Positions 1-58,285 of a stretch of 64,000 bases of DNA are shown here, piece after piece (positions within the stretch are counted from its first letter, which is position 1; each line of letters begins with the position of its first letter). Under the pieces are notes generated by a model. That model was not told the origin of the DNA, did not search any database, and saw only the letters and a list, made by a program, of their open reading frames with translations. The position numbers were made by a program, and so were the translations under genes. This DNA is from a virus (lineage: Duplodnaviria > Caudoviricetes), in IMG/VR virus record IMGVR_UViG_3300020045_006302, positions 1 to 64,000 of that record. The stretch is one strand, 5' to 3'.

Positions 1-3000
1 GTAAACTACCTTTATTATCCCAAAATTTAAATGGTAATAAAACTTCTGAATATTTTATAGTTCCATCTTCATTTCTTGTTGTTTTTAATGTACCATCCCA
101 ATCCTTAGTAGTTATTAATTTTTGTGTATCTACGTTATCTATACTTACTATATTATTTCTACCTTGTCCTACTTCTGATACAAGTACAAAAGATTTACCT
201 CTTACTTTTAATTTTCTAATTCTATTATCAACTATTGAATTAGTTAATGAATTTAATTTAGAAGCATTAGCATTAAGATATAACGGAATTTCAAAGTCTG
301 TACCATTTTCATTTAGTGATAAACTTTCTAAATCATTAATATTATAACCTCTTGATACTCCTTCTTTTACAATTATATCTCTAAGTTTATTAATATTTAT
401 GGTTCCAGTTTCTTCATTGTAATCTAATTCTTTACGTAAATTTTCATTATGTAATTTATATAAATTACCCATATTCTCATTAAACTTTTTACCAATATCT
501 CTTCCCTTTAGAGAATCTCCAGTGAAAGGGTCTATAAATCCATCTACATTATGTAAATTAGTTAATATTAGTTTTACACGTTGTGAACCTATATTAATAT
601 CTTTTGATGTAGTACTATAAGGAACTTTTTGCTGTATTCCATGTCCTTCTCTTGGTACTTCTAATAAAGCTTCTTTCCAATTATCTGGTATAACTACTTC
701 TCCATTTTCATTAAATAAATTTATTACTGTAGAAGGCGCTCCTGATTTTACTGCCGATTTAAATGCAATTCTATCAATATTTTCAACTTCCATAAACCCT
801 CTTAAATCTTCTAATGGTGTACCATTTGTAAATTCTTTAGTAAGAGGAACGGCTGATGATTTTACATATAAAGGTGTATCTAATCCTTCTCTCATATAAT
901 TATTAAAATATAAAGGTTTAGTTGGACCTAATATTACTCCAAATTCTTCTAAATTTAAAGGTTTATCAGTATTATGCCTGTACATTATTTCATCTATAAT
1001 TTCTTGAGATAATCCTTCTTCTTTATTTTTAATTCTTAATGCCTCTTCTACTGTTACAAATTCTTGAGCATCTGCAACATTTATAGCATCATATCCTTTA
1101 TCTATTCCCCATTCTTTTAATTGTGCTAAATTTGTACTACCTTCAATTAAATCATTTATAACTAATAATTTAAAGTTTTCTCCTTTTTCAGATATAATTG
1201 TATTTTTAGTACCACTATGTCCTGCAAGACGTTTAAATTGATTATCGTTAGTCATTCTTGCTTGAGTAATTGCATTACTATTTACCTTATTAGCAAAGAA
1301 TGCAGGGTCACCTACAAACAATTGTTGAAAGTTCATATTAGCTACTAAATAATTAATAGTGTAATTAGTAAGAAGATTATTTATATTATCTCCATACTTT
1401 TCTACATATTGTTTATCTATTTTACTATATTTAATTTGTCCTGTAAATTCATCTACTTTTACAAAGCCTGTATCTAACCATTTATTATATTTTTTATCCT
1501 TTTCAGAATTAATATATAATCTTAAAGCTTCTTTAAGTAGATTTCTACTATCCTGACTTTCTCCTACTTCTGTTTTTAAAGATATTCGATTTCCATCATT
1601 ATCTTTTATCCAAAATCTATCTATATTATTTAATGCAGGAAACAGTAAGAAATTCATTGCACCATTCTTATACTCCTGTACTTTAATTTTATCAGGATTA
1701 TTTTGAAATTGTTTAATTCTATTTATTTCCGGCATTATTAGTATATCTACTAATTCTTCTAATTCAAAACTTGATAATCTACCGTCTATTAAATTATAAT
1801 TTTTACCTACTGTCGTAAATTGAATAAGTCCTGTTTTATCTGACATTGTAGGATATAAAAATCTATGTACTGGAAGTTTAGAAGCTTCTACGCCTCTATT
1901 AGTAAACATTCCTACTTTAAACTCTTCCATTTCTTTAGGAGTAAATCTTTCTATAGCTACTTTTTTATTATCATTAGAATAATAACTATCAGTATTATAA
2001 TCCAATGTATTGTATAATACACTATCTTTATTAATTACTCTATTTCCATTTTCATCTTCTTTAGTTAGCATTTCTAACCATTTAGAACCTCTTATAAATG
2101 GATCTTGTAATAATCCTTTTATTAAATCATTATCAGTCTTTAATTTACCAAATCTATCAATTACATATCTATTTGTAATATAAGCATAGTTATTGTTACC
2201 GTTACCATCTTTAAATGAATTTGCACTTAAATCTGTACGATAATCTGCAATAAATTTAGATAAATCTTTAAAGGCACTATCTGCATATAAATTCATTTTA
2301 TCTAAATCTAAATCTTTAGCTTCTCCTATTGCCAATTTTACTTTAGAAAATACATCATATCTTTCTTTAATATTTTTAAATACCCCTCCTGATTGTATAA
2401 AACTTTCTTTTAATGTTAATACATTATTTTTTCTTCTTACTCCATCTACTACCCAAGAATTAAATAATGATTGTGGAATTTCTATTCCTACGGATTTCAT
2501 CATTAAATCTAAATTTTCATATGTAAGAGGTAATTTTCCATTTAGTATTCTTGAATACATTTGATTAAAGTATTCAATTGCTTTTGGATTTATTACTACA
2601 ATATCATTTACTTTTACTAATATTCCTTTATGTAAATTATTTTGCCACTCGGAAATTACTAAATCAGGTACCTTTGAGGACGCATTTACAATAGGCACAA
2701 GCGACGAACTTTTACCGTCCTTATCGTAAGACGTTTTCAAAAAGATATGCTGCGTAGCCTGCCCGCTGAACGCTGTAACGAACATATTTTGCATTTCCTT
2801 ACTGGCATTTTCTAATTTATCGACTACATCATATAAATATGGTATTTGCTCTTGTTTAGTTCTTAAATATTCTATATAATTTTCTATAGTAGGATATATA
2901 TATCTTTCTCCATTAGTAGATAATAATCTTTTTAATGTTTTAAATACTTGGTCTTCTCCGGGATATACTGGATCTAAAAATTGATTTTTACGTTCTTTAT

Positions 3001-6000
3001 ATTCTGCTATTCCTTCTTTATTATAACTTACTCTGTAATCTATAATATCATTAAGGAATTTTTGTATTTCAGTTCGTAATTGAGTACGAGGGTCAATAGT
3101 ATATGCAGATGTATCTAAATATACATTCCTTTCTCCTAATACTTCATCTTGGTCAAAATCATTAGTATCATCTTCATTCTTTTCATCATTATTTTCATCT
3201 ATAGATTTTATAGTAGTAATATTATTAAATGTATTAAATCTTCTTTCTACAGATTGAATTAATAAATTTTTATTAGCTACTATACTATCAATCTGTATAG
3301 TCATATTTTCAGCCTGTGGATGATTACGTGCAATATACTTTTGTTTTACTGTTTCTAATGCTGCTAATTTAATTTCTACTGCTTTTACTATATCTACTGA
3401 TGGTGCTTCTTCTTTTACACTACTATCAATTAAATCTTGATATAATTCTGTAACAATAGCTTTAGTAAGATTTACTTGATTTTCTATAGATACTTTAGGA
3501 ATATATGTAGAGAATTTTAATAAATTATTTATAATTTTATTTTGTGGAGTATCTTCTTTATTTTCAATTACTTTTAATTCAGGTTCTAAAAATAACTTAT
3601 CAGGTAAATATACATATTCTGTATTAGAATTTTTATAATTAACTACATTTCCTGCTCCATCTACTCTATATGTATATACTTGTTTTTTCCTACTTTCTCC
3701 TTTTACTATTAAAGTATCATCTGATAACACTTCAATAGATTTTAAAATCAATTTATAATTATCTCCATCTTTATTTTCTACTTCAAATACTTTTCCAATT
3801 ATAGCAGGATTTATAGTATATCCTTCTGAATTTGTATTAGGAGATTGAAATTCCTCAGTTACATCATCTAATTCTGAATATTCTGTTTGTTGAGGTTCTG
3901 TAACATTTCCCTCTACAGAAACATCCATTGATTGAGTCAAAGGAGAAGCTATATCAAATTCAATACTACCTTGAATTGCATATATAGTTTTACCGTTATT
4001 TAATGTTATTCCTAAATGATTAGTTAATAAATTATCTTTTATAAAATCATTATAAGAAGTATATTCATTACTTATAGTATTATCATCATTTATAATGGGT
4101 AATGCAAATCTTTCAGAAGCTTTATTTATATCTAAGTTAATAAAAAGATTTTCAACATGATTTCTAAAAGAAGTTAATAACTCTTGTTTTTGTTCTTGTC
4201 CTAAGTTTTTATTTCTTTTTATTATTCCTACATTAATTCCTGCTCCTTCTCCAAATCTTATTTCTCCTTTTGTAAAATGTGTTATAAATACACCATCAGG
4301 TAAATTATTTAAATAATCTGTAAAATCTTGTTCAGTAGGTAAATTTTTATTTATACCATAAATAAATTTAGTAAGATATTCTTCTATACCTTTATTACTT
4401 AAAATATCTATTCCATATTCTTTTTTTATAGTTTCTACTGCTTCATTATTATTTCCATCTATAAAATATTCTACGGCTTTTAATATAGTACTTGTATATG
4501 CGTTTTCATCTGCATCTGTAAATCTTGTACGAGAAACAGGAATAGCTATTAAACTTCCATTATAAGTAGGTAATATTGCAACATTTGTTCCTTCATAAGG
4601 AAGTAATTCATTTGTTACAGGTATTACAGTATCTCTATTTATATATACTTTATTATTTTTAATAATTCCTACTTTAATATCAGGTATATTTTGAGATACA
4701 GGATTAAAATTACGAGTAGCATCTAAAATAGGTACACCTGGACCAACTCTTGTAACTTTAGTTTCAATTCCATTAGGAGAATCTAATACTAATCTACGAA
4801 ATTCTCTTAATGTATTTTGTTGTTTTTCTAAATTTTCTTTACTATTATTTACGTTTTGTATATTAACCCATGAAGTATCATGAAGATAAATACCATCAAG
4901 TAATTCTCCATCTACTATAATTCCTATAGGACTATCATCTACTGTAGAAATATCTGCAGATCTTACTGTTCCGTCTGCTAATTCTACTTCATCTAATGCT
5001 ACAAATTTAATAACACTTCCTTCTTTTATACTTCCATCTAATACTTTTTCAGATAAATTTTCATTAAGTAAATTATTAATATCTCCTTTAGTTACAGCTA
5101 TATAAGGATTATTATTTGCAGTTTTTCTTTCTACAAATACTTTACCATAATCTCTTGCTAAATATGCAATTTTATTATGTCCTTCTTCTCCTCTATAACC
5201 TAAACTATCAAATTCAAATGCACTATCTCTTGCATCTAAATTATTCATTTGTGCAAATTCATTTAATACTGTTAAACCAGCTTTAGATATTTTATCTATA
5301 TCAGATGTATATAATTCTGTATCTAAACTAAATACTTGAATATCTTTACTATCTTTTACTATTTTAACTTTCTTTGGTACATCATACATTAATTCTTCAT
5401 AAGAATCTGTAATATCTTGTTGAGTAGCTAAATTATACAAATGACGTAAAGGTATATAAACAGCTTGTACTTGTTCTTTATCTGTAGTATCTTCAAATGA
5501 TTTAATTACAGCTTTAAAATCTGATAATGATGTTCCTTCATTACGTAATAAACGTAATATATCAATCATTTTTTGTACACGAGGTTGAATATTAGTAAAT
5601 TCATCTTGTGTTTCTTCTTCAGCCGGACTATTTAATACATCATTAGATAAATCATCAATTAAGTCTTGTTGTTTTTGTGCTCTTATAGATATATTATCTG
5701 ATGCTACATTTAATTGAGAATTTAATTCTTGTTCTAATTTATTAACTGACTCTGTAAATTGTCCTATATTTTGTTTTATATTTATATCATTATTTACAGA
5801 AGAATTTATATACTCTTTTACTTTTTGTAATCCTTCTTTCTTTTGTTCTAAAGTTGCATTAGGATTTGAAATAAAAGCATTAAAATTAGTTATTAATCCT
5901 GATATAGCTTCATCTGAAGAAGGATTAAATAACTTAGATTGTATTTTACCTACTTCTTTAGTTTCTTGTGGAGTATTACTTTCAGGTAAATTTACATTAT

Positions 6001-8371
6001 CAGTTTTTGTGGAGGGTTCTGTAGAGGGAAGTGGTACAGGACTTGTTTCTTCTACAGTAGTTTCATTATTTACCTCATCAACTGTAACATTATCTCTTAC
6101 TAAAGTATCATTCATTGCTTTAGTAAATTGTTTACCTTTCTTTTTATCTTCTGTTACTGATTTATTTATTTGTTGTTTTTCTACTTTTTTACTTTCTCCT
6201 TTTTTATATTTATCTATAGCAGTACGTAAATTAGTTTGATATTCTTTAGTTGTAATATTTTTATAAGTATCTTCTAAATTTTTAATATTATTTTGATATA
6301 CTTTACTTGCTGTACTTAATGCTTTTAAATCTTTATAATATTGAGTTTTAGCAAATTCACTATTTAATACATTAATATCAGTTAATGTATCCATTGTTAT
6401 AGCAGGTAGAAATTCTTTTGAATTTACATAATATTCATTAGCTGATTCTAATACTCTATTAAATTCTCCTTGTATATATCCTAATATTTCTTTATTATCT
6501 TTTGCTTGTGTTCTATTAAAATATACCTCATTACTGTTTATATATCTTTGAGAATTATTATATTCTTTTTCTAATACTAATAAATCTTTTAAAGATTTAC
6601 TCATTTTAGTTTTATAAAAATCCTCTGTAGTTTCATCACCTGGTTTATATATACCTTTTGCTTCTGCTTCTTCTTGGGATAAATCTCTTAAACCTTTATA
6701 TACATTCTCTAAGTTATCTGTAGTACCAGTAGTAAATGCTTGTAAAGCTTGTGTATTTAATAAAGATGCTTCTAAAGTTTTTACTTTACTTACATTTCCT
6801 TCTTTTCTCGCTTTAGCAATTTCATTATATAATTTTAATGTTTCATCAGTATTATTCAATACTGTAATATTATCTGTTAAATTTTCTACTTTAGGTAAAT
6901 TATTTTGTTCTTCTAATATAGCTTGTTGTTGTACATATTGACGATTAAATTTATAATTATCTGATACAAATTTATTATTAGTACCTGCTTTTTCTAATGC
7001 AAATTGTTTAGCTTGTGAATCTTTTTGTTCATCAGTTAAATTTACATCTTTATTTAATTCAGAATATTTTTGAGTATATGCATTATTAAATTCAATATTT
7101 TTATGCATAGGTATTATTTTTCCTACTTTAGTTAAAGCTGTTTGTCCTGCTCCTCCTATTGCTCCTAATAATCCTGATTCAAATCCTTCTTCAGAAAATG
7201 CACGCATTAATCCATCTTTAAAAGTATAATTATCTGCATAGGCCCTATCTTCTCCTATGTCATTAATTGTTTCTTCTAAATATTCTTGTCCTGCTTCTAA
7301 TGCAGTTCCTTTAATACTATTTCCTATAGTCCTTGCTGCAAGTATATTCCTTGTTCCTCCTATTGGAGTATTTAATAGTGCATAGGCACTTGTTAAATTT
7401 AATAATATATTTGCTCTATTAAAATTAATAGCCTGTGATGCTCTATCTGCTGCATCTTTTCTTGCATTTATATCAGCTTGTTCAGGAGATAATCCTTTTG
7501 CCCTTTCTTCATCAAATTTACTTTTATATACATTATCAAATACATTTGCACCAATTCCTACACTTTCTGCTTGATTTAATAATAAAGAAGAGGCTAATGC
7601 ACTTCCTGCTCTTATACCTGCATTTGCTTCTAATGCTCCTTCTGCTACAGATAAACCTCTTAACCATTGTACAGCTTTTGCTCCTTTAGTAATTGCTCCT
7701 AATGATGCTCCACCTGTAGCCATACCTAATGCTACAAATGCACCTGCAGATGTTACTATTTGACTACCATTTTCAAACCAATAAGCTGCATCTCCAAAAT
7801 CCAATGGTTTATCAGGATTTTCTCTATATATAGGTAACATTTCATTTACATTTTGTTGTAATGATTGCATTCCTTTTGATAACCAGTTTCCTACTTCATT
7901 ATTAGTATTATAATAATCTTCTAAATCTAATACATTTCCAGTTTGTGCTACTATTTCAGGAATAATATTTAATACTGTTCTTCCTAAAGCATTACCGAAT
8001 TGTGACCAATTACTTTGTCTTTCTGCTCTTGTAGTATCTAATGCTTCTTTATTAGGAATAAATCCTATATTAGTTCCTAATATATCTTGATAATCTTCAA
8101 GGTCTATTTTTAAATCTCTTTCTGCACCTTGTTGATATTGTCCTCTTAATAATGAATTTGCTCCTTTAACTAAGAAACTATCATTTATTCCTGATTCTTT
8201 TTTAGGCTCTCCATTATCAGTATTATTAAGCTCAAAAAGTCCTAATGATTTAGGACTTTCTGTTGTTGCTTTTTTAGGTGGATCTATTGTTGGTAATTCT
8301 TGTACAGGAGTTTCTGCTTGTGTTAAAGTTTGGTCTTGTACTTCGCTATTTATTATATTATCTTCTTCCAT
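1..8371 (-). CDS. Giant virion-packaged RNA polymerase (crAss-like vRNAP polyprotein), 5' part; truncated by the window edge
   Basis: ATG at 8371 overlaps the TAA of the upstream gene. The ORF track lists no minus-strand fragments in 1-8370, consistent with one ORF lacking a stop in the window. Hand translation in the same frame gives FQQLFVGDPAFF, NQFKRLAG, VADAQEF, GPTKPLYF, IDRIAFKSAVKSG and HGIQQKVP, which I recognise from crAss-like/phi14:2 vRNAPs. The catalytic DxDxD motif is presumably beyond base 1. The frame was spot-checked, not translated end to end. Confidence 0.85.
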   Translation of the reverse strand, partial: MEEDNIINSEVQDQTLTQAETPVQELPTIDPPKKATTESPKSLGLFELNNTDNGEPKKESGINDSFLVKGANSLLRGQYQQGAERDLKIDLEDYQDILGTNIGFIPNKEALDTTRAERQSNWSQFGNALGRTVLNIIPEIVAQTGNVLDLEDYYNTNNEVGNWLSKGMQSLQQNVNEMLPIYRENPDKPLDFGDAAYWFENGSQIVTSAGAFVALGMATGGASLGAITKGAKAVQWLRGLSVAEGALEANAGIRAGSALASSLLLNQAESVGIGANVFDNVYKSKFDEERAKGLSPEQADINARKDAADRASQAINFNRANILLNLTSAYALLNTPIGGTRNILAARTIGNSIKGTALEAGQEYLEETINDIGEDRAYADNYTFKDGLMRAFSEEGFESGLLGAIGGAGQTALTKVGKIIPMHKNIEFNNAYTQKYSELNKDVNLTDEQKDSQAKQFALEKAGTNNKFVSDNYKFNRQYVQQQAILEEQNNLPKVENLTDNITVLNNTDETLKLYNEIAKARKEGNVSKVKTLEASLLNTQALQAFTTGTTDNLENVYKGLRDLSQEEAEAKGIYKPGDETTEDFYKTKMSKSLKDLLVLEKEYNNSQRYINSNEVYFNRTQAKDNKEILGYIQGEFNRVLESANEYYVNSKEFLPAITMDTLTDINVLNSEFAKTQYYKDLKALSTASKVYQNNIKNLEDTYKNITTKEYQTNLRTAIDKYKKGESKKVEKQQINKSVTEDKKKGKQFTKAMNDTLVRDNVTVDEVNNETTVEETSPVPLPSTEPSTKTDNVNLPESNTPQETKEVGKIQSKLFNPSSDEAISGLITNFNAFISNPNATLEQKKEGLQKVKEYINSSVNNDINIKQNIGQFTESVNKLEQELNSQLNVASDNISIRAQKQQDLIDDLSNDVLNSPAEEETQDEFTNIQPRVQKMIDILRLLRNEGTSLSDFKAVIKSFEDTTDKEQVQAVYIPLRHLYNLATQQDITDSYEELMYDVPKKVKIVKDSKDIQVFSLDTELYTSDIDKISKAGLTVLNEFAQMNNLDARDSAFEFDSLGYRGEEGHNKIAYLARDYGKVFVERKTANNNPYIAVTKGDINNLLNENLSEKVLDGSIKEGSVIKFVALDEVELADGTVRSADISTVDDSPIGIIVDGELLDGIYLHDTSWVNIQNVNNSKENLEKQQNTLREFRRLVLDSPNGIETKVTRVGPGVPILDATRNFNPVSQNIPDIKVGIIKNNKVYINRDTVIPVTNELLPYEGTNVAILPTYNGSLIAIPVSRTRFTDADENAYTSTILKAVEYFIDGNNNEAVETIKKEYGIDILSNKGIEEYLTKFIYGINKNLPTEQDFTDYLNNLPDGVFITHFTKGEIRFGEGAGINVGIIKRNKNLGQEQKQELLTSFRNHVENLFINLDINKASERFALPIINDDNTISNEYTSYNDFIKDNLLTNHLGITLNNGKTIYAIQGSIEFDIASPLTQSMDVSVEGNVTEPQQTEYSELDDVTEEFQSPNTNSEGYTINPAIIGKVFEVENKDGDNYKLILKSIEVLSDDTLIVKGESRKKQVYTYRVDGAGNVVNYKNSNTEYVYLPDKLFLEPELKVIENKEDTPQNKIINNLLKFSTYIPKVSIENQVNLTKAIVTELYQDLIDSSVKEEAPSVDIVKAVEIKLAALETVKQKYIARNHPQAENMTIQIDSIVANKNLLIQSVERRFNTFNNITTIKSIDENNDEKNEDDTNDFDQDEVLGERNVYLDTSAYTIDPRTQLRTEIQKFLNDIIDYRVSYNKEGIAEYKERKNQFLDPVYPGEDQVFKTLKRLLSTNGERYIYPTIENYIEYLRTKQEQIPYLYDVVDKLENASKEMQNMFVTAFSGQATQHIFLKTSYDKDGKSSSLVPIVNASSKVPDLVISEWQNNLHKGILVKVNDIVVINPKAIEYFNQMYSRILNGKLPLTYENLDLMMKSVGIEIPQSLFNSWVVDGVRRKNNVLTLKESFIQSGGVFKNIKERYDVFSKVKLAIGEAKDLDLDKMNLYADSAFKDLSKFIADYRTDLSANSFKDGNGNNNYAYITNRYVIDRFGKLKTDNDLIKGLLQDPFIRGSKWLEMLTKEDENGNRVINKDSVLYNTLDYNTDSYYSNDNKKVAIERFTPKEMEEFKVGMFTNRGVEASKLPVHRFLYPTMSDKTGLIQFTTVGKNYNLIDGRLSSFELEELVDILIMPEINRIKQFQNNPDKIKVQEYKNGAMNFLLFPALNNIDRFWIKDNDGNRISLKTEVGESQDSRNLLKEALRLYINSEKDKKYNKWLDTGFVKVDEFTGQIKYSKIDKQYVEKYGDNINNLLTNYTINYLVANMNFQQLFVGDPAFFANKVNSNAITQARMTNDNQFKRLAGHSGTKNTIISEKGENFKLLVINDLIEGSTNLAQLKEWGIDKGYDAINVADAQEFVTVEEALRIKNKEEGLSQEIIDEIMYRHNTDKPLNLEEFGVILGPTKPLYFNNYMREGLDTPLYVKSSAVPLTKEFTNGTPLEDLRGFMEVENIDRIAFKSAVKSGAPSTVINLFNENGEVVIPDNWKEALLEVPREGHGIQQKVPYSTTSKDINIGSQRVKLILTNLHNVDGFIDPFTGDSLKGRDIGKKFNENMGNLYKLHNENLRKELDYNEETGTININKLRDIIVKEGVSRGYNINDLESLSLNENGTDFEIPLYLNANASKLNSLTNSIVDNRIRKLKVRGKSFVLVSEVGQGRNNIVSIDNVDTQKLITTKDWDGTLKTTRNEDGTIKYSEVLLPFKFWDNKGSL

Positions 8372-11300
8372 TATAAATAAGGGGTGTTAAATTCTACGTG
8401 TAAATGATTTCCTTCTTGAAGCATTCTTGCAATATTATATTGTTTTAATAATTCAGGATTATTCATTAATTTATTTTTAAATTCTAATCCTTCTGCATTA
8501 TCTTCTATATCTAAAGCATATCCATATTTATGTGGGCTATCTTTATTAGAGTTCTTTAAGTGGTCATGTGTATTTTCTCCTCTGAAACCTCCTGTTACAA
8601 GTAGTTTATTATCTTTTACTAAAGGTATAGCATAAGTTACTACATTTTTATTAATATAAGGTAGTTGTATATTAGGTGCAATATGACCGGCTAAACTACT
8701 GCTAAAATCAACAAGGTCATTTTTAGGCACTCTCGCTTCAATATAGGACGTCTGACCGTTCATTGATTTTAAAGGGATATTGGCATTACCTTGATTATAA
8801 AACGCAGGCAGGGAGCGTGTATATGCGTTATACGAGGTGGATTTAATATCATTTTCAGATACTTTTTTATATCCATTTATATTTCCTCTTTGTTGTAAAT
8901 AAGGAGTATAAGGATTAGTTTCTACTTTTGTTTCTACTTTACTTGCATCTTGTTCTAATGCTGAACCTCCTATCCATTGTTTAATATCTCCTGGATTTTC
9001 AAAATCTACTGGAACATTAGAAGTATTTGAAGCATTTTCAAACTTATATTGTCCTCCTTTATCTTGTACTAAAACCATTCTATTACTTCCTTCTCCTGTA
9101 TATACTCTAAAATCTGTATTATTTAATGCAGAGCCTAAAGCTGTTTTTGCTGTTGCTTCTATAGTCAATGGTATTTTATTACCTCCATGATTAATCTCTA
9201 CTCCAGTACTTCTTCCGGGTAATAGTGTATATAAATTTGCATCATCTATAGTTTTACCTAATCCTGTTGCGTTTGCATACATTTCTCCTGATGCTTTAAT
9301 TACATTTTGATAAGTACCATCTTTAGTACCTCCTGCAACAATATCTCTAAAACTATCTCGTATTGTGGATTGTATTAATTCTTGTCTTGTACCTTTATTC
9401 TTTCCTTCATAAGATGCATTTACTTTAATGCTATTTGTATTTTGGTACATTTCCTTAGCATCATCATTTAGATTTTCTAATCCTGTTTTAGTTAATGCTA
9501 AATTAATACCTCTTAATATTCCTCCTTTATCATCATTTTGTAGTAGTACTTGAATATCTGTTTTATCCCAATCTACATCTGCTCTTAAATCTTCTATTCC
9601 ATAATCAGCGAGTACAGAACTTAAAGGTCTTTCTCCAACCATATAAGTTTCAGGATTAGATTTTAAAGTATGTTTTTCATCTGTTAATAAGTTATTATAT
9701 TTTTTAAGAGATTGTTTTTGTGTTTCTCCTTCTATATGTAAATATGATAAATCTCTTGTGGTAGGAATATTAAATTCTCCTGCTAATGATTTTAACTTAG
9801 ATGGTATTTCTATATCTCTTTCAGAATATACAACTCCATCTATTATAGTTCCTCCGGAAGCAGGGTCATATTGTCCTTTATTACTTCCTGCATATTTACT
9901 TGCTATAAAATCCTTATATTCAGTTTCAGTAGGTACTCTTACATAACCTATTCCTCCAAAATCTCCTCTTCCTTTATTTAATTCATCTGATTTTGCTCTT
10001 GCATTTAATTGCTGTACAATTGTTGCCCTTTCTGAATTATTATTAGCAAATTCCTTAGTAATATTAATTCCTTTTTTACTTGCTAAATCGTATACAGCAT
10101 CAGTAACATTTCTTTTAGTTACATCAACTTGTTCTATTTTTTTATTTATAACAGCTAATTGCTCTCGTTTTCTATTTAACTCTTCTGTTGTATATCCAGG
10201 AGTCTTTTTATTTACTTCTATTTCGTAAGTTGCAATATCATTTCTTAATGTAGGTAAGGATGTTTTTATAGTTGCTACATCATTTTCTAATTGAATATAA
10301 TCACTTGGATTTACTGCTTGCATTGTATTCCAATCTTGTATAGATGTAATAGAATTATCTAAAGGAGCATCTTTTTCTGTTTCTGCTTTCCATCCTACAG
10401 CTTTCATTAATAAATCGTCTGTTAATACTGTAGGTTGTACATTTTTAAAAGCTAATTTACTTACTGCAGGTTGAATTGCATTTTTAGTCAATTCATTTAC
10501 ATTTGCATTTTTTAATGCTTGTTGTGCAGAAATTCCTTTATTATCTAAAAAGTTTTTTAAATCTGCTTCACTTGCATTTTCATTTCCTAATACATTCTTT
10601 TTTTCATTAGGAGTTAATTTACTATATAAATCTGTTAATGGATTTTGAGAACGTGATGTAATAAAATCAGACCTATCTCCAAAATAACCTTGTATATCAG
10701 GACGAGAATTAAAATAAGAAGTCAATCCTTCTATAATTCTATCTTGAGTTACTATATCTCCTTTATTATATTGTAATAATCCAGGAATAGGTTGTTTTAT
10801 AGTTACAGTTCCATCTTCATTTTGGTCATAATATCCATCTGCTTTTATACCGTCAAATAGTTTAATTGCTTCTTCTGCTGCATCTACATAAGGATTTACT
10901 TTAGGTTGTCCTATTCTTCCTGAATTATAAAATCCTGTAACATCACTTTTTGTTACAGGACTTACTTGAACTTTAGCTTTATAGTAATCTTTCATATCAG
11001 GAGTAATACCTTCATTTTTATCTATTTCTGCATAAGCAGATTGTAGATTAGCATAATTTTCTGCAAGCTGTTTACCTCCTTTTTTATTAGTAAAATCATT
11101 TGCAAATTTATAAGTATTTAATACATTATCTGCCATATTATCCGGAGTTAAAGAAGCACTAAATGCCTTAGTTTCATCTACTAAGGCATTATATACTTGT
11201 TCATCTTGCGGTAAATATTTTAAATTTGTCATCATATTTTCTAATGCAGTTTCATTTTGAACTGATTGTAAATATTGCTGTTCTCTTGCATTTAAAACTT

Positions 11301-11388
11301 CATTTAAATTCTTAGGAGAACGTACTATAGGTATTGTTGCTCTACTGTATCCTAAATCTCCTAAATAATCTCCATTTTGTGTTGCCAT
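8371..11388 (-). CDS. Virion ejection/cargo protein with C-terminal M15-type peptidase domain
   Basis: 1005 aa, next to the vRNAP; C-terminal GGFR...SPHKYGYALDI...NHLHVEF matches the M15 Zn-peptidase R/SxHxxGxAxD/HxH pattern. Confidence 0.65.
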   Translation of the reverse strand: MATQNGDYLGDLGYSRATIPIVRSPKNLNEVLNAREQQYLQSVQNETALENMMTNLKYLPQDEQVYNALVDETKAFSASLTPDNMADNVLNTYKFANDFTNKKGGKQLAENYANLQSAYAEIDKNEGITPDMKDYYKAKVQVSPVTKSDVTGFYNSGRIGQPKVNPYVDAAEEAIKLFDGIKADGYYDQNEDGTVTIKQPIPGLLQYNKGDIVTQDRIIEGLTSYFNSRPDIQGYFGDRSDFITSRSQNPLTDLYSKLTPNEKKNVLGNENASEADLKNFLDNKGISAQQALKNANVNELTKNAIQPAVSKLAFKNVQPTVLTDDLLMKAVGWKAETEKDAPLDNSITSIQDWNTMQAVNPSDYIQLENDVATIKTSLPTLRNDIATYEIEVNKKTPGYTTEELNRKREQLAVINKKIEQVDVTKRNVTDAVYDLASKKGINITKEFANNNSERATIVQQLNARAKSDELNKGRGDFGGIGYVRVPTETEYKDFIASKYAGSNKGQYDPASGGTIIDGVVYSERDIEIPSKLKSLAGEFNIPTTRDLSYLHIEGETQKQSLKKYNNLLTDEKHTLKSNPETYMVGERPLSSVLADYGIEDLRADVDWDKTDIQVLLQNDDKGGILRGINLALTKTGLENLNDDAKEMYQNTNSIKVNASYEGKNKGTRQELIQSTIRDSFRDIVAGGTKDGTYQNVIKASGEMYANATGLGKTIDDANLYTLLPGRSTGVEINHGGNKIPLTIEATAKTALGSALNNTDFRVYTGEGSNRMVLVQDKGGQYKFENASNTSNVPVDFENPGDIKQWIGGSALEQDASKVETKVETNPYTPYLQQRGNINGYKKVSENDIKSTSYNAYTRSLPAFYNQGNANIPLKSMNGQTSYIEARVPKNDLVDFSSSLAGHIAPNIQLPYINKNVVTYAIPLVKDNKLLVTGGFRGENTHDHLKNSNKDSPHKYGYALDIEDNAEGLEFKNKLMNNPELLKQYNIARMLQEGNHLHVEFNTPYL

Positions 11389-11389
11389 T

Positions 11390-13054
11390 TTATATACCTA
11401 TTAGTGATTTTAGTAATGGATTATTTTTTGCTCTTTGTCGAATATAAGGATTTAATCTATATTCTCTTTTCTTTTGTCCTGTTATATCATTTTGTAATTC
11501 AGTAAGAAGTTCATTATCATCTTGTGTTAATATTGCAGACTTTTGTCCCATTTGACTAATATCTTCTGCAAAGTTATTTATATTAGCTGAAGTTCTTGCC
11601 AATCTTCCTGCTGTATTTGCTTGAACTCTATCTTGATAATCACTAAAAATATTATTATTTTGTGTTTCATTTCTATTTTGATATTCTTTATTTCTATTTT
11701 CTAATTGAGTTTGAATATTATTTTGATTTGCATATACATCTGATAATTGTTGAGAACCTCTTAATCTTGTTGCAGCTATATTTGCTCTTGCTATATTACT
11801 ATTAGATGTATTACTCATCACATTATTAGCTGTAGCTTCTACTGCATTTTTAACTGCTGCTACTTGTGGATTTACATTTACTCGTGTATTTAATCTAACA
11901 GGAGAATTTAATATAGGTTTAGGTACTCTTGGACTTGCAGCATTTATTATGGCATTTCCTATATTATCTATTCCTAATCTTAAAAAATCTCCCCCTTTAT
12001 CAGAATTTGCATCATAAGGAGAAACTTCTTTAGGAAGTACATCAGGAATAATAGTAGGTAAAGGTGCTACTATTGGTTGAGATTCTGTAGCTAAAGTATT
12101 TTCATTAGGATTATAAGTAGTTGAAGGAAATAACTGCTCTTCATATGTTTTTCTAAATCCATAAGGGTCTGTATTTTTTCTTATAGGTCCTCCTAATGCT
12201 AATTTATCTAATACTTGCATTCCTTCTATTTCTTTATGTAATTCTTGTTGTTTAAATAAACTTTCTTCTGCCATATTTAAACCTGCAAGTTGTCTTTCTA
12301 CTGTATTTTTACTTACTGTAGTAAGTTTACCATCTAACCTTTTTTCTAATGTATTTCGTTTTGATGTTACTTTTTTCATTTTATCTGCATAAGTATTTTT
12401 ATTATCAGCCATTAATCTATTACTAAATACAGCTTGTCCATCAGCAATTACTTCTCCGTCTTCTACTTCTGCAACAGGTTGTCCATTTTCAGATAAAGTT
12501 ACACCATAAGAATTATCTATAGTTTTTTCTCCATGTTCATTTCCTACTACTTCTTGAACTCCTTCTGCTAATGGTTTTAATTTTCCTCCTGTTGTTTGAA
12601 ACTTCCCTATAGAAGAATCTTCCAGCAATGCTGATTTATCTATTAATCCTCCTTTTGCGTAATATTCTACAGTATCTTGTCCTACTGTATTTTTATAATC
12701 TTCTGCAATTATTCTATCTTGATTAGTTCTTTGTCCCCACATAGCATTCATTGCTGCTTGTTGTTGAGCCTTTTGTTTTTTTCTTGCCATTTCAGAAGAA
12801 AAAACTCCTGTAACTAATCCTACTCCTGCTCCTACTGGGCCTCCCATGCTTGCTCCTGATACAGTACTACTTAAAATAGTTCCTGCTTGTCCTTCTGCTA
12901 ACCCGCTTGAAGATATAAAAGCAGAACCTTTTTCTAATCCTTCTCTATTATCTAATAGACTTTTTGGACGTTCTTTATCCCATTTTTCATCTCCTATATT
13001 ACTTCCAATTATATTAGCTGATATATGTCGTTTTCTACTATTTAGTCTTTTCAT
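11390..13054 (-). CDS. Ejection cargo protein with glycine-rich membrane segment
   Basis: 554 aa; GASMGGPVGAGVGLVTG segment and HGE...GV...AEVEDGEVI motif, as in crAss-like cargo proteins; position between muzzle and vRNAP. Confidence 0.55.
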   Translation of the reverse strand: MKRLNSRKRHISANIIGSNIGDEKWDKERPKSLLDNREGLEKGSAFISSSGLAEGQAGTILSSTVSGASMGGPVGAGVGLVTGVFSSEMARKKQKAQQQAAMNAMWGQRTNQDRIIAEDYKNTVGQDTVEYYAKGGLIDKSALLEDSSIGKFQTTGGKLKPLAEGVQEVVGNEHGEKTIDNSYGVTLSENGQPVAEVEDGEVIADGQAVFSNRLMADNKNTYADKMKKVTSKRNTLEKRLDGKLTTVSKNTVERQLAGLNMAEESLFKQQELHKEIEGMQVLDKLALGGPIRKNTDPYGFRKTYEEQLFPSTTYNPNENTLATESQPIVAPLPTIIPDVLPKEVSPYDANSDKGGDFLRLGIDNIGNAIINAASPRVPKPILNSPVRLNTRVNVNPQVAAVKNAVEATANNVMSNTSNSNIARANIAATRLRGSQQLSDVYANQNNIQTQLENRNKEYQNRNETQNNNIFSDYQDRVQANTAGRLARTSANINNFAEDISQMGQKSAILTQDDNELLTELQNDITGQKKREYRLNPYIRQRAKNNPLLKSLIGI

Positions 13055-19255: not shown

Positions 19256-19948
19256 TTAAAATAATTTAATTATTCCTACATTCACGAACTTATTCTTTCC
19301 CTTTACAGAACGATCCACAGAGTTTGATGTACTATAATTTGTATTATATCCTGCTTCAAATTGCCAATTAGATTTTAATTGATATATTCCTTTTATACCT
19401 ACTGCATCATTACTATACCAATTTACACCTATTCCTATTTTATTTCTTACATCCTTAGTTAATGTATTTTCTACTGTCCTTTGTACTGTTATAGTCTTAG
19501 TAATATATGAAGGAAATTTGGGCTTATATAAGAAGTCCTGATAAACGATTTCGTCCGAAACAGGATTGAGTACCGTAAAAATTTTTCCATCGATTAGGGA
19601 GTCTGTGACAGCCTGTGTGAAGGTCTTAACAAGCGGTATAATCTCCGTTCTCGTTTTTCGCTCACCAGTCAAACTATCTACTGTAACATATGTATTATAA
19701 TAATTTTTAATTTCTTTTCCTTTTTCTAATTTTTCTACTTTTATAAGTAATTCTTTATATAAATTAACAATTGTATCTACATCTACAGATATAGTATCTA
19801 CTTTTATTACTGTTTCTTTTTTAGTATAACCTCCTAATGAAGTTATTATTTTATCTTTTCCCCAATCTATCATTAACCAAAACAATAAAAGGAGTATTAC
19901 TACTCCTATTATTATCTTAATATTCTTATTAATTTTAGTATCAATCAT
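19256..19948 (-). CDS. Membrane-anchored lysis accessory protein (spanin-like)
   Basis: N-terminal TM helix, coiled coil, beta-rich C-terminus ending VGIIKLF; last gene of the lysis cassette. Confidence 0.4.
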   Translation of the reverse strand: MIDTKINKNIKIIIGVVILLLLFWLMIDWGKDKIITSLGGYTKKETVIKVDTISVDVDTIVNLYKELLIKVEKLEKGKEIKNYYNTYVTVDSLTGERKTRTEIIPLVKTFTQAVTDSLIDGKIFTVLNPVSDEIVYQDFLYKPKFPSYITKTITVQRTVENTLTKDVRNKIGIGVNWYSNDAVGIKGIYQLKSNWQFEAGYNTNYSTSNSVDRSVKGKNKFVNVGIIKLF

Positions 19949-26500: not shown

Positions 26501-26515
26501 CTTTTATTGTTTTTG

Positions 26516-27607
26516 TTATTCTATTATTATATTTTCTCTTACATATTTTTCATAATCATCACTTCCTACTACTCCTAATATAGTTTGTGCTGTATTAGAT
26601 ATTACTTCTTCAAGTATAGTATTATTTAATTCCGAACTACTATTCAAAAGTAAGTCAACTATCACAGGTTTACGCAAATAGGTCAATTTTACGGCATGAA
26701 CTCTGACACCGGCAGGTTTGGGTATCTCTATGAAAAATTCACGTAACACAGCGCAAACACTGGCATCTACAGACCTGCTAAGATATGAGTTTAAAACGTC
26801 GGTTTTATATTCCTCGTCTATAACTCTAACCTCTCCTTCTTTTACTTTTGTATCCGGAATTGTATTTATATTATATGTAAATGCTGCAGAATCAATTTCA
26901 TAAATTTCATCATTTACAAGTACAGTTAAATCTGTTAAATTACCTATTAATTCTATTTTATTATTAAAAGTATTATAACTTACTTCTGTTATTACATTAT
27001 TATTAATATTAATATTATTATAAAAAGAAACAGTAGTATCTACAAATTGTAATTCTCTAAGTCTTTTTTTAATTATTTGTACTACTGCATTATTAAATAT
27101 AAAATTCTTTTTATAAGTTGGTATATTGTCTTGTGGTAAATAGCCATCAGGTAAATCATCTAATGAAAAAAGTGCTACAGTACCCAATACAGGTAATGTA
27201 GCACTTATTTCCAAGGTATCTATATTATCAAAATTTTCAAAAGGATTAAAAGATATATTTCTAATTATTTCACTACTTTCATTATTTTCACATGATACAT
27301 ATGAAGATGCTGATATATAAAATAAATAATCTTTTGGTAGAGGAACTACTAAATCTTTATTATCAAACTGTAATACATTAATTACACGTGTAGTTAATAA
27401 TGGATTTAAATCCTGTATTCTTTTTTTAATATCAAATATTCCTTGTTGTTTATTATTAGATAGAGGGCTAAGTCTTTGTTTTATATATTTACTTATTTCT
27501 CTATTAATAAAAAAATCATATTCCTGTGGCAAAAAACTTCTATTCCAATGTGTACTTGATTTTTGTACAAGTATGTTTAAACTATTGTGAAGTTCCTGCG
27601 TTGTCAT
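26516..27607 (-). CDS. Tail ring protein with insertion domain
   Basis: MTTQELH..LN...K....FLPQEYDFFIN N-terminus and LTYLRKP..V C-terminus typical of crAss ring proteins. Confidence 0.55.
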   Translation of the reverse strand: MTTQELHNSLNILVQKSSTHWNRSFLPQEYDFFINREISKYIKQRLSPLSNNKQQGIFDIKKRIQDLNPLLTTRVINVLQFDNKDLVVPLPKDYLFYISASSYVSCENNESSEIIRNISFNPFENFDNIDTLEISATLPVLGTVALFSLDDLPDGYLPQDNIPTYKKNFIFNNAVVQIIKKRLRELQFVDTTVSFYNNININNNVITEVSYNTFNNKIELIGNLTDLTVLVNDEIYEIDSAAFTYNINTIPDTKVKEGEVRVIDEEYKTDVLNSYLSRSVDASVCAVLREFFIEIPKPAGVRVHAVKLTYLRKPVIVDLLLNSSSELNNTILEEVISNTAQTILGVVGSDDYEKYVRENIIIE

Positions 27608-39306: not shown

Positions 39307-40485
39307 TTCTATTCTTTCTTTAATTGTATATTAATCTCATTATGTTTTTGCTTCTTTCCCTATAGAAAGACCATCCATTAAATCTGTATGTAAATATATG
39401 TAATTACTTGATACTCCGCAAGCAATTACAGCATAATGTGTAAATATTTTTATAGGAGTAGAAAAATTAACATAAGTAATAGTATAAATATGAATTAAAT
39501 TTCATACCTCGCGTGCATACGTACACGCAGGCGTATAATATACATTAATATTTGTAATAATAAAATATTATTTTCATTAGGTTATTAAGTTTCTTATGCT
39601 ATATTAAGGACTCTTATATAATTATATAAAATAATGTAAATTAAATTAATATACAAATATTATTATACAAATTTTACAAATTTTAACATTTTTACTATAT
39701 ACAAAATTATATTATAAAAATGTACAAAAATTATATTATTTTCATAAAATTAAATTATATTATTCTCATACAACCATAATCTACAGTTGATGGAATGTCT
39801 TTGTATAGGGAAAGGTTACAAAACTTAATAAACTTTAATTACATAAATTTCATAAAATTACAGTAATAATTTTAAATACTTTTTATTATGATTTTCAAGA
39901 ATAAGTAACTAAGTGGTCTCAGCTACTTTATTGGGTACATTAGGATTTATATTATTTACATATAGATTTTCTTATGAGTATGAGTGTAGCTAAACTTAAA
40001 TAATTTAAAGAATTTATAAATGTAAATTAAAATTATTTAAATTTTGTATTATTTTAAAGAATAGTATCATAAGTTTTATAAGATTATATTGTAGTATTTT
40101 TATTAAATTTTATAAAAGATTAAAATTATTGTGTTAAATGTTGGATTAAGAATGATTTATTTTATTGAGAATAGTTAGAGTTTTATTTTATGGATATTTT
40201 AGAAATTTTATAAGGAGATTTAGTGTGTTTTAAATTGTGTAAATAGTGTGAGGATTATTATAGAGATTATTATAGACAAATTGTTATAGAATTTATTATG
40301 GCTTGATAAGAAGGATGAATATGGGGAAATACTGCACGATTAAATGATATTAGCCGTAGATATATGGACGTACCCTATCTTTCACCCCCGCATAGTTTTG
40401 GACGGACAGAATACCCCGTACCTTAATCTATATAGAAATTTAGAAATCTAAATTCCAAAAAATAGATTATAAACTTTGTAAATAA
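39307..40485. promoter_or_regulatory. Divergent non-coding control region between the late and early arms
   Basis: About 1.2 kb with no ORF, extremely AT-rich, strand switch point; contains GC-rich hairpins, skewed tracts and two copies of the dispersed motif. Confidence 0.7.
39980..40015 (-). repeat. Left copy of a 36-bp imperfect inverted repeat
   Basis: Reverse complement aaattctttaaattatttaagtttagctacactcat matches 42814-42849 at 31/36 positions. Confidence 0.7.
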
Positions 40486-40509: not shown

Positions 40510-41088
40510 ATGAAAACTACACGTGTAATCACAGATGTAAAATTAATTGACCGTAATGTTAAACGTGCTATTGTTGTCCTATCATTGGATGGACATGCAG
40601 ATGTAGTACGAACTACAGACCAAATGTTAATAGACTTCCAAAATAGTCTATTAATACGAGATGTACGTAGTACTGAAGACCCTCGTTTTGTAAAAGCATT
40701 ACGTAGTCTTAAAGGAGCAAAACTAACAGGAGATTTGCAACCTCGTAAAGCAGGAGAAAGCTATACGATTGATGCTACACATCCTGATGTTGTTGCTGGT
40801 AAAGCTAAAGCAGGCGAAAAACGTATTGCTGAAAAAGATGGTGTATGGGTTGAGGGATTTCTTTCCATAGAAGAAAGCCTACAAACTCAAATGGTAAATG
40901 CAGAAGCAGAAGCTTGGGCAGAAAAACGAGCACAAATACTAAATCTTAGTAATATGTTTGGCTCATTTAATGCTACTACAGCTGCTGCACCTGTTGAGCC
41001 TGAAAATGTGTATGTTCCTTCTGAAGAAGTTCCTTCTGAAGAGCAGGAAATACTCGACGAAGTGCTTGGTAATGGTAAACCTGCATAA
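40510..41088 (+). CDS. First early gene, hypothetical protein with acidic tail
   Basis: The ORF track starts at TTG 40486; ATG 40510 is the more likely start. High-expression codons (CGT), acidic C-terminus, followed by a terminator. Confidence 0.75.
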   Translation: MKTTRVITDVKLIDRNVKRAIVVLSLDGHADVVRTTDQMLIDFQNSLLIRDVRSTEDPRFVKALRSLKGAKLTGDLQPRKAGESYTIDATHPDVVAGKAKAGEKRIAEKDGVWVEGFLSIEESLQTQMVNAEAEAWAEKRAQILNLSNMFGSFNATTAAAPVEPENVYVPSEEVPSEEQEILDEVLGNGKPA

Positions 41089-42849: not shown

Positions 42850-43106
42850 TTCCAATAAACCTACAAATAAACCAATAATACTAAAATAAAATACAATAAT
42901 GTAAGTAAAATTCAATATTGATTTTAAAGCCCTCTAAAGGCTCAATTTTCCTAAAATATATCAATACTCATACATAAATTTCCAATTCCGCATAATCATC
43001 CTGTGTCCTTATATTAAGGTATCAGCCGGTATGCGTAAATTGTTAAAAATTTATAACATATTAATAATCAACATATTATAAAATAGTAAATAAAATAATA
43101 AATAAA

Positions 43107-52665: not shown

Positions 52666-52667
52666 AT

Positions 52668-53341: not shown

Positions 53342-53344
53342 CAA

Positions 53345-55633: not shown

Positions 55634-55646
55634 TTAAATAAAACTT

Positions 55647-56102: not shown

Positions 56103-57492
56103 TGAAAAGAAAAAACAGAGACAACTTAATGGAATAATCAAGTGGCATAATTGTGGCTTCAGGGGTATTTTATATTATCCAACTGGATTTGGTAAAACTT
56201 TTACAGCTATATTAGCAATTCAATATTTAGAAAAACTTACTAAATCTTCTTATTTAATAGGAGTAGCATCTGAACAAAATAAACAACAATGGATAAAAGT
56301 ACTTGAAAAGAATTTACCTAAATATTTATTAGAAAGAGTAAGAGTAAAAACATTCCATGAAATTGTAACTTCTGATTTAAGATATGAAGTAGGAACATTT
56401 ATAGTAGATGAAATACATGAATGTCATACAGATGAAAGAATAGATTTAATTAATGGATTTAAAGTATATTCTAAATATATATTAGGACTTACAGCAAGTG
56501 CAGATGATAAAAACTTCTTTAAAATCACAATGCATATTCCGATTATAGATGAAATTACCGAAACGTATGCTATACAAGAAGGATATATATCTGACTTTAT
56601 AGAATATAACATACCAGTAAATTTAACTGTAAAAGAAAAAGGAGATTATGATAGACATTCTTCTATAGTATCAGGATTAATGGATAAATTCAATAAAGAT
56701 ATTGGATTAGTTCAAAAATGTATTAACGGAGGAAAAGATAATTATGGAACTTATTATACAGGAGTACATTGGGCAACATCACTTGCACGTAGTAAAGGAT
56801 GGGCACCTACATTAGATTTTAATTTACAAAGAAATAGAGAACTTGATGATGAATATAATCCTAATACAATAATTAATAATAGTCGTAGATTAATGACTGC
56901 TATTAGAAAAAGAAAAGAAATATTGTATATGGCATCAGAAAAATATACATTGTGTATAGAAATATTAAAAAAGTATTCTACTATTAAAACAATATTATTT
57001 TCTGAAAGTACTGAATTTATAGATATACTACAAATTCAAGCTAAACGTCAAGAATTAAAAACTTCTTTATATCACGGTAATTTAAAAACACAGATTAAAA
57101 CTTCTCCTGTATCAGGAAAATTAATTAAATTTGGAAAAACAAGATTAAAAAAGATTGCATTAGAGGAAATTACTACAGGAAAGACAGCAGCTTTACTTAC
57201 ATCTAAAGTATTAGAAAAAGGTACAGATATACCTGATATTCGTATAGGTATTGATGTAGCAGGTACTTCAAATCCTACTACATATAAACAAAGAAAAGGT
57301 AGAGCATTACGTAAAGAAGCAAGTGTATTTGAGGAAGATATTGTATCACTTATATTAAATATATATGTAAAAGATACAGTAGAAGAAAGTTGGCTTAAGA
57401 ATAGACAAAAGGACACAACTCACGTTATTAATAAAGTGTTATCTTTAGATGATGTTGATTATGTACCTCCAAGTAATCCGGATTTACTATGA
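56092..57492 (+). CDS. SF2 helicase
   Basis: PTGFGKT, VDEIH, GLTAS, LEKGTDIP and YKQRKGRALR motifs. Confidence 0.9.
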   Translation: MQVNEKKKQRQLNGIIKWHNCGFRGILYYPTGFGKTFTAILAIQYLEKLTKSSYLIGVASEQNKQQWIKVLEKNLPKYLLERVRVKTFHEIVTSDLRYEVGTFIVDEIHECHTDERIDLINGFKVYSKYILGLTASADDKNFFKITMHIPIIDEITETYAIQEGYISDFIEYNIPVNLTVKEKGDYDRHSSIVSGLMDKFNKDIGLVQKCINGGKDNYGTYYTGVHWATSLARSKGWAPTLDFNLQRNRELDDEYNPNTIINNSRRLMTAIRKRKEILYMASEKYTLCIEILKKYSTIKTILFSESTEFIDILQIQAKRQELKTSLYHGNLKTQIKTSPVSGKLIKFGKTRLKKIALEEITTGKTAALLTSKVLEKGTDIPDIRIGIDVAGTSNPTTYKQRKGRALRKEASVFEEDIVSLILNIYVKDTVEESWLKNRQKDTTHVINKVLSLDDVDYVPPSNPDLL

Positions 57493-58085
57493 TAATAGAG
57501 GATAGTTATTTAGATTTTTTAATACTAAATAGATTAACACAACCACAATTCTTATTATTACATTTAATATATAAGAAAAGAATAGATTTATTACGAAAGT
57601 ATAAACAAGCGTTCCCAACAGATGATGGAACTATAATAGGAAAACGATTAACAGACGAATTAATACAAAGAGGATTTTTAATAATAAAAGAAGAAGGAGG
57701 TGGATTTGAAATAGGAAAAGAATTTCTTAAACTATATATAGATAGTAGAGAAGCAACAGAACAAATATTTAGAATATATCCAACATACTATCATAAAAGT
57801 GGATTGGATATACCTTTAAATATAATGGATAGAAGAACATTTTCTAAAATATATGAAGAAGCTATTATATATTCTAATGCAGAACATATAGAAGTTATAA
57901 AAGATATTAAATATGGTAAATTACATAATCTTATTATAATACCTATAGATAAATTTGTAAAATCACATTATTGGAAAGTATTACGTAAACAAAGATTAGA
58001 TTATGAAAATACACCACAAATAGATGAATACTCTTTATCAGTTCCACAGCCGGAAAATGACAGCTATTCTGAACCTGCCTTTTAA
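57489..58085 (+). CDS. Hypothetical replication-region protein (possible initiator/HTH)
   Basis: 198 aa; N-terminal winged-helix-like pattern and ++..YP motif; between helicase and annealing protein. Confidence 0.45.
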   Translation: MIIEDSYLDFLILNRLTQPQFLLLHLIYKKRIDLLRKYKQAFPTDDGTIIGKRLTDELIQRGFLIIKEEGGGFEIGKEFLKLYIDSREATEQIFRIYPTYYHKSGLDIPLNIMDRRTFSKIYEEAIIYSNAEHIEVIKDIKYGKLHNLIIIPIDKFVKSHYWKVLRKQRLDYENTPQIDEYSLSVPQPENDSYSEPAF

Positions 58086-58285
58086 CTGTATGCCCTTTTT
58101 AGGCTCACAGTTGTATTTTAACCCTTGTTACGTATTATAATAAAGGAATTAAAGAACGTTGCTTAAATCGCCTTAAAATCGCTTATAGTCAATAGTAGGA
58201 AAATTAGAAAAATGTTAATGAAATTAAAAAGATAAACGGATACTAAAATAAATTGATTGAAAATTGTAAAATTAACTGGAATGTC

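Follow-up and report, generated by a model that had tools for sequence, protein, structure and literature searches.

Gene-borne GC islands with a modest helical rhythm in an environmental crAss-like phage: candidate DNA-bending or wrapping sites written into synonymous codons

The genome of an extremely AT-rich soil crAss-like phage, the first 64,000 nucleotides of which were analysed (hereafter the window; positions 1 to 64,000 of the virus record IMGVR_UViG_3300020045_006302), was found to carry a small number of sharply bounded islands, within which the genes switch at their silent positions from a nearly exclusive use of A/T-ending codons to a frequent use of G/C-ending ones. The islands are maintained in place without conservation of their sequence, and the choice of silent codons inside them follows a 10–11 bp rhythm that is real but modest. 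Tentatively, these GC islands are read here as sites of DNA bending or wrapping. The window forms the start of an 84,696-bp contig, whose ends overlap by 121 bp, indicating a circular assembly; its GC content is 26.2%, compared to 25.7% in the whole contig.

The islands were located by counting the G/C-ending codons in sliding stretches of 40 codons, followed by maximum-scoring segmentation. G/C-ending codons made up 6.1% of the codons in the window (ATG and TGG excluded), corresponding to a mean of 2.4 per 40-codon stretch with the bulk of the values at 0–9, while a separate tail at 10–20 originated from exactly four places, identical with the four intragenic islands of a preliminary description of this DNA. 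These were the only places reaching the threshold of at least 11, with maxima of 15–20 per 40 codons, and the segmentation resolved them into blocks of 51–62 codons, 19–24 of which were G/C-ending (islands 1–4, Table 1), so that the share of such codons was about 45% inside the four blocks versus 6% genome-wide. When synonymous codons were permuted within genes (100 shuffles), the top score obtained genome-wide averaged 12.4 and reached 22.7 at maximum, against 22–35 for the six islands present in the whole 84.6-kb genome. Five of the six were situated in the minus-strand late arm at distances of 3.7–10.8 kb from each other, which makes the earlier designation of the set as genome-wide an overstatement.

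The GC content of the four islands in the window (0.42–0.46) exceeded the value expected from their proteins (0.29–0.33) by 0.11–0.16, for example 0.46 against 0.31 in island 1 and 0.42 against 0.30 in island 2, indicating that the enrichment is synonymous. The codons responsible included ACG, CCG, TCG, GAC and TTC, which the preliminary description had singled out as rare elsewhere, and its view of the signal as a DNA-level one carried by synonymous codons was supported. The other GC peaks of the window (at 7591, 12721, 25521, 31401 and more) were, on the other hand, accounted for by the amino acids encoded. The profile of the G/C share at third codon positions (GC3), pooled from 12 large islands, had a box-car shape, with values of 0.02–0.04 up to both edges and 0.33–0.52 inside; the large islands measured 44–69 codons, or 132–207 bp.

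The persistence of the islands was followed through the 230-aa protein encoded by the gene of island 3, the homologs of which were at most 47% identical to it and whose contigs were retrieved for comparison. The alignment placed the island of this gene in identical columns for eight other genomes (L001, L003, L006, L007, G001, L046, L047 and L032), which stem from independent samples and have proteins identical by 33–47%. One of these, G001 (IMGVR_UViG_3300042502_001136), is a complete genome of 83,238 bp; contig L031 (Ga0164293_10000035), which is 98.7% identical to it, was not counted as a separate genome. In all nine genomes the island was located about 90–109 codons after the start and 76–89 codons before the stop of the gene, ending at a conserved YKPKFP motif, so that the elevated synonymous GC is indeed kept by the relatives at the homologous position of this gene. 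The sequence itself was not kept: at aligned silent sites coding for the same residue, both genomes had G/C in 0.146 of the cases versus 0.110 expected, i.e., the states of the silent sites were nearly independent between genomes, indicating a block at compositional equilibrium and not a decaying relic. The codons of the islands aligned with residues of island-less homologs and are therefore no insertion.

The remaining islands had a narrower distribution. L001, L003 and L007 also had the island of the 363-aa gene (island 4), which was attenuated in L006 and hardly present in G001, and the codons of G001 orthologous to islands 1 and 2 had GC3 values of only 0.02 and 0.06, respectively. In G001 the giant gene had a 69-codon island at a different place, and in L001 an island was located at the end of the gene of a muzzle-like protein, while the islands were missing in more distant relatives. 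Single-protein scans of viral contigs gave no match, and no family was assigned to the island-bearing proteins by PHROGs.

The helical rhythm was assessed by the power of the alternation between strong (G/C) and weak (A/T) bases (S/W power) against a null, in which the protein was kept and the silent codons were redrawn from the codon usage of the islands. The excess power was confined to periods of 10–11.5 bp, with z of 3.9 at 10.0 bp and 5.3 at 11.0 bp, while |z| did not exceed 1.7 at other periods. It was highly significant for 15 islands pooled from six genomes (p < 0.001), significant for seven independent positions (p = 0.037) and absent from random background coding windows; its replication in three islands from three newly added genomes was weak (p = 0.046). 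The pooled autocorrelation had maxima at 10–11 and 22–24 nt and minima at 5 and 16 nt, and the autocorrelation of flags marking the G/C-ending codons was negative at a lag of one codon and positive at a lag of seven codons.

The force responsible for the islands acts on base composition. All codon families shifted alike to approximately 40–55% of G/C endings with C and G in similar numbers, which argues against selection for particular tRNAs; furthermore, the GC content of codon positions 1 and 2 was higher (by 0.05–0.09) in the island bearer than in the island-less ortholog in four out of six comparisons, while the rest of the gene was equal. Together, the uniform shift of the codon families and the gain at positions 1 and 2 point to composition as the target. 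Neither a bias between G- and C-ending codons or between the strands nor a pattern along the island was found, and there was no link to conserved protein residues (identity percentiles of the island segments 0.11–0.74).

Several other natures of the islands were considered. An overlapping gene was rejected, since every alternative frame was broken by stop codons inside the islands and none was consistent between orthologs. Repeats, template/variable pairs of diversity-generating retroelements and guide targets were rejected as well, with only chance similarity or complementarity of 12–14 nt among the islands and between islands and genome, and the same applies to the shared arm words previously listed at 8715 and 26691, which remained at chance level. 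Convincingly enriched k-mers were not detected in the islands (AAAATT was the highest, z 3.6), and no edge signals were visible at their borders. The whole window had no Rfam match at the gathering threshold, nor did its segment 39300–47000 at E ≤ 1.

A box-car block with a kept position, whose composition is altered in a strand-symmetric and rhythmic manner, is best fitted by a segment selected for bending or wrapping. That the islands are such sites, read by shape and written into codons, is the explanation preferred here, and we would stop short of calling it probable. They would then represent elements set by composition and shape and not by a specific sequence: selection would hold G/C at silent, and partly at replacement, positions spaced by about 10–11 bp between A/T runs, and in stiff AT-rich DNA such a block would become a segment preferring one direction of bend, which could be wrapped on a protein. 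The most likely reader would be a protein using indirect readout over some 130–150 bp, with the host DNA gyrase as the best-known candidate; gyrase specifically may deserve perhaps half of the confidence given to bending or wrapping as such. Gyrase-like sites would hardly arise by chance in a genome with 26% GC, so that a few dedicated ones along the late arm, where the supercoiling driven by transcription should be greatest, may relieve this supercoiling or set topological domains. The wrapping by a protein, the identity of this protein with gyrase and the benefit for the phage are all inferred, and the link to transcription by an N4-type virion RNA polymerase, drawn in the preliminary description, would be pure conjecture. 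Somewhat doubtful is the more far-reaching proposition that a clade of environmental crAss-like phages overlays a second, shape-based code on its late genes, in the form of a few rhythmic docking or wrapping sites of about 150 bp for a topoisomerase or a DNA-organizing protein, splitting the late arm into topological domains. A shape code of this positioning type would, as far as reported, be undescribed for any phage; neither a description of such islands nor a link to gyrase was found in the literature on crAss-like phages.

The closest known counterparts are the gyrase sites. The Escherichia coli gyrase motif obtained by Topo-Seq covers 130 bp, has its centre of symmetry at the cleavage site and flanks with a period of 10.75 bp, and shows a consensus with 69% GC and short A/T patches (PMC6379681). 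The published 133-nt consensus (PMC6379681), which originates from E. coli and may differ from that of the host, was reduced to its S/W pattern and used as a matched filter. The pooled islands exceeded the protein-preserving null by a small but consistent margin, with a mean r of 0.233 versus 0.202 ± 0.011 (0/300), or 0.282 versus 0.244 when only the arms of the consensus were considered; a slight resemblance to the gyrase motif was thus recovered in the pooled islands but in no single island of the window. The length of a gyrase site (about 130 bp) fits the large islands in its order of magnitude, while one of the two islands outside the window has only 75 bp. The strong gyrase sites (SGS) of phage Mu, pSC101 and pBR322, as well as the E. 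coli motif (PMC6379681), resemble the islands in being of the order of 130–200 bp, degenerate and read by shape, and gyrase sites are GC-rich with A/T patches at approximately 10.75 bp, a pattern with which that of the pooled islands correlates above the control. The Mu SGS also provides a phage precedent for a dedicated gyrase site. However, Mu has one central non-coding site in contrast to several blocks per genome within codons in the present case, and the gyrase motif is symmetric with a cleavage core, while no symmetry or core was detected in the islands. Another known type of shape signal, that for the positioning of eukaryotic nucleosomes, also overlies coding sequence, and shares with the islands the alternation of G/C and A/T at 10–11 bp achieved by synonymous codons over some 150 bp without sequence conservation. 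Unlike the nucleosome arrays, the islands are rare and isolated, and we know of no histone-like protein in this phage or in its likely Bacteroidota host.

A number of results weigh against the islands being bending or wrapping sites, beginning with the size of the effect, which was modest (band power 0.54 versus 0.36). The 10–11 bp periodicity announced in the preliminary description exceeded the codon-redraw control when the islands were pooled, but it was marginal (p = 0.053) for the five large islands of this genome alone, four of which are in the window. When islands were tested singly by permuting codons among identical residues, which is a weaker test, p ranged from 0.11 to 0.71 in the window and was 0.048 after pooling. 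The symmetric layout of two arms around an AT-rich core was not recovered either: the GC content by fifths of the islands was 0.39/0.44/0.41/0.38/0.37, around the midpoint the S/W patterns of the two arms correlated at best with 0.290, versus 0.305 ± 0.015 for the null (p = 0.83, in a test of low power), and neither a dyad symmetry nor a distinct centre was found. An anti-phase shift by 180 degrees between the island halves was ambiguous, since the null was itself biased and the phase swung with the period tested; the data were fitted equally well by one coherent rhythm with a period close to 10.0 or 11.4 bp. The islands never crossed gene borders and in four cases had an edge coinciding precisely with a start or stop codon (at 74144 and 77758 in this genome and at 39782 and 60645 in G001), which, unlike the behavior of a pure DNA element, points to the transcript or its translation. 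Wide conservation was observed only for the island in the 230-aa gene, the others coming and going between relatives. Regarding gyrase, none of the islands in the window matched the E. coli template significantly when taken individually (p = 0.13–0.69), and this template is not necessarily that of the host, as the preferences of gyrase may differ between species. Finally, neither a topoisomerase nor another wrapping protein was found among the phage genes, and the same negative result for an HU/IHF-like gene speaks against the phage's own HU/IHF-like protein, which had been put forward as a possible reader.

A function at the mRNA level, where a GC block would fold stably because of its composition and, as a barrier for RNases, whether scanning or exonucleolytic, or a brake for the ribosome, tune the stability or yield of parts of the long late transcripts, is unlikely in our estimation. 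It would agree with the location of all islands in coding sequence, with the fact that several of them begin at codon 2 or finish at the stop codon, and with a sequence that is free to vary while its GC is kept; the free energy predicted for the 150-nt islands from composition alone was −25 to −35 kcal/mol. However, the 10–11 bp rhythm has no obvious rationale in RNA, an asymmetry of G versus C between the strands was absent, and an island on the first 27 codons would hinder initiation instead of helping it. The islands did not fold more stably than their shuffled versions on either strand (z from −0.05 to −1.6), and no conserved RNA structure was detected in two sets of orthologous islands (alifold energy about 0). 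A case in which both levels are combined is presented by the repetitive extragenic palindromic (REP) sequences and bacterial interspersed mosaic elements (BIME), GC-rich repeats of operons which bind gyrase and stabilise mRNA. They resemble the islands in being GC-rich within operons; REPs, however, are intergenic, palindromic and conserved in sequence, in contrast to the coding, non-palindromic islands, which are unrelated in sequence. Since REPs bind gyrase and also protect mRNA, the readings at the DNA and mRNA levels need not exclude each other. The REP/BIME elements of enterobacteria are mentioned in the work on the gyrase motif (PMC6379681).

GC-biased repair at recurrent sites of breaks, nicks or recombination, such as nuclease targets, where heteroduplexes repaired time and again would drift to G/C as in biased gene conversion, would leave GC itself without function. 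It would be consistent with the uniform shift over codon families, extending to positions 1 and 2, and with the presence of RecT, an exonuclease and a free-standing HNH nuclease among the phage proteins. GC-biased gene conversion, a process of eukaryotes, has also been proposed for bacteria (PMC4450053). Its hot spots resemble the islands in that GC is raised locally, at silent as well as replacement sites, while the sequence is not conserved, but they give gradients, no helical rhythm and no deep fixity of position. A gradient of gene conversion was rejected for the islands, in which GC3 was at its low outside level directly at both edges without any decay. A homing-endonuclease target or co-conversion was rejected as well, since no nuclease gene, intron or intein adjoined the islands or occurred at the same place in the relatives; the sole HNH gene is separated by about 8 kb from the island closest to it. 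The islands are also not placed at the most conserved protein segments, and a G-then-C strand pattern was not seen. Overall, biased repair appears quite improbable.

Pacing of translation, in which different tRNAs would alter the elongation over about 50 codons in favor of folding, membrane insertion or assembly of virion or lysis proteins, is very unlikely. The conserved position of the island in the 230-aa protein, about 90 codons from the beginning and after the N-terminal hydrophobic segment, and the respect for gene borders would suit it, but the islands involve all codon families with C- and G-ending codons alike, which is not tRNA-specific, and the GC gain extends to positions 1 and 2. 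The other islands, moreover, are not kept in relatives having the same protein, one of them occupies the last 57 codons of its gene including the stop, and the gene of the major capsid protein has no island. Import of the patches from a GC-richer relative or an assembly chimera, for which the sharp edges, a codon usage resembling genomes with about 40% GC and the origin from a metagenome-assembled contig with a 121-bp end overlap might be quoted, is already largely refuted and hardly credible, because the same block was present at the same codons, in diverged sequence, in nine independent assemblies from different samples with nearly independent silent-site states. Among 5.8 billion proteins, none was found that could have donated an almost identical segment of an island, and two island regions had no nucleotide matches in 50,697 phage records.

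Two further islands of the preliminary description, mostly intergenic, do not belong to this class (Table 1). The first is absent from the GC peaks of the window, and no terminator-like site was found in it; the second barely touches the threshold, a GC content of 0.41 per 100 bp being reached only at 58011–58110. The 16-mer GCCCTNTWWAGGCTCA occurs only twice, in the spacer of the first region and at 58092.

Table 1. Coordinates of the GC islands, of regions previously taken for islands and of the copies of a dispersed motif (ORF, open reading frame)
Feature	Position	Strand	Description
Island 1	2648..2806	-	53 codons, 24 G/C-ending; in giant ORF 2..8371 (no family match); score 32–35
Island 2	8689..8841	-	51 codons, 19 G/C-ending; ORF 8371..11388 (1005 aa), stop 106 codons further
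Island 3	19520..19672	-	51 codons, 24 G/C-ending; 230-aa gene 19256..19948; ends at YKPKFP motif
Island 4	26633..26818	-	62 codons, 23 G/C-ending; ORF 26516..27607 (363 aa)
Island outside the window	74144–74218		25 codons, from codon 2 of DUF932 gene; 75 bp
Island outside the window	77758–77928		last 57 codons, including stop, of 2,236-aa ORF
Previously claimed island, not of the class	42925..43040		ordinary AT-rich spacer with one copy of 16-mer GCCCTNTWWAGGCTCA
Previously claimed island	58045..58190		58045–58085: 5 G/C-ending among last 13 codons of ORF 57489..58085; then ordinary spacer
Copies of 17-bp motif TTTCCCTMTASARAAAS	3906, 6015, 19296, 27765, 31405, 31458, 36742, 39355, 39797, 48825, 55498, 55692, 59824, 60936	both	

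The crAss-like nature of the phage was established by its major capsid protein (ORF 28778–30304), which matched the Crassvirus major capsid family with an E-value of 4e-53. The genome also encodes ring proteins 1 and 2, a muzzle-like protein, a family A DNA polymerase, SF1 and SNF2 helicases, RecT, a ligase, a DnaG-like Toprim protein and an exonuclease. The capsid identity to cultured or named phages was at most 33% even for the nearest of them, and the nearest sequences overall came from soil and other environmental metagenomes. The genes neighboring the islands encode an amidase, ring proteins, DUF932, Thy1-like and MazG-like proteins, and the gene of island 4 is located two genes downstream of the major capsid gene. 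The 230-aa protein has a hydrophobic N-terminal segment and no family match, and its gene is flanked in all relatives by those of an Amidase_3 endolysin and ring protein 2; it may be a membrane protein associated with lysis or the tail.

The free-standing HNH endonuclease gene (65250–65693 of the genome, beyond the window) adjoins an ORF of 702 aa (65710–67818) with an N-terminal GHKL ATPase domain, whose best named matches were the HSP90 family and the ATP-binding domain of sacsin. A GyrB-like topoisomerase was ruled out for this ORF, as it is HSP90/sacsin-like and without a Toprim domain. Protein gp26 of phage crAss002 (MN917146.1, 34336–35028), the record annotation of which reads "putative IHF subunit, histone-like protein", was ruled out as IHF-like, since it matches the Pfam family of crAss tail ring protein 2 (E 5e-45); judged from this match, the IHF label looks outdated.

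The window also contained a dispersed 17-bp motif, TTTCCCTMTASARAAAS, with 14 copies versus 0.24 expected, present on both strands, within and between genes. It is found outside the GC islands and accounts only for a 14-codon patch at 19283–19324; its variant in G001 is TTTCCCCTCTAG / TTTCCCCAATAG. The plus strand has a stretch nearly free of C at 40000–40300, with no C in 40100–40199 and a single C in each of the neighboring 100-nt bins, followed at 40300–40425 by about 125 bp of non-coding DNA with approximately 42% GC and two CGTACC words. This whole region (40000–40425), which had no Rfam match, is located upstream of the first plus-strand gene (40510–41088, conserved in G001).

Comparison of G001 with L031 (98.7% identity over 16.6 kb) showed that nearly all differences were concentrated at positions 10000–12000 and 26000–26800 of G001, with an identity of 93.7% in one of these segments, and both are probably hot spots of host range or tail fibres. 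A substitution test on this pair was uninformative, with only one difference within an island. In the cultured gut phage crAss002 (L045, MN917146.1; GC3 15%), stretches of 40–60 codons enriched in G/C endings were noticed at 4074–4241, 14182–14301 and 20067–20246; they may be weak analogues of the islands, and only the one at 4074–4241 nears the maximum of the shuffled codons.

The islands demonstrate that a phage gene can hold, at its silent sites, a conserved, sequence-independent physical signal, which is missed by searches for motifs, repeats or RNA. In practice, such blocks may be taken wrongly for products of horizontal transfer or for errors of the assembly. If they are hot spots of repair or barriers in mRNA, they would offer a clean, sharp-edged and deeply conserved system, in which selection for GC may be separated from biased repair. 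If, on the other hand, the islands serve for wrapping or as gyrase sites, they would provide a testable handle on DNA topology in the Crassvirales, about whose replication and transcription little is known, and would account for the way in which a very AT-rich phage handles supercoiling during heavy late transcription.

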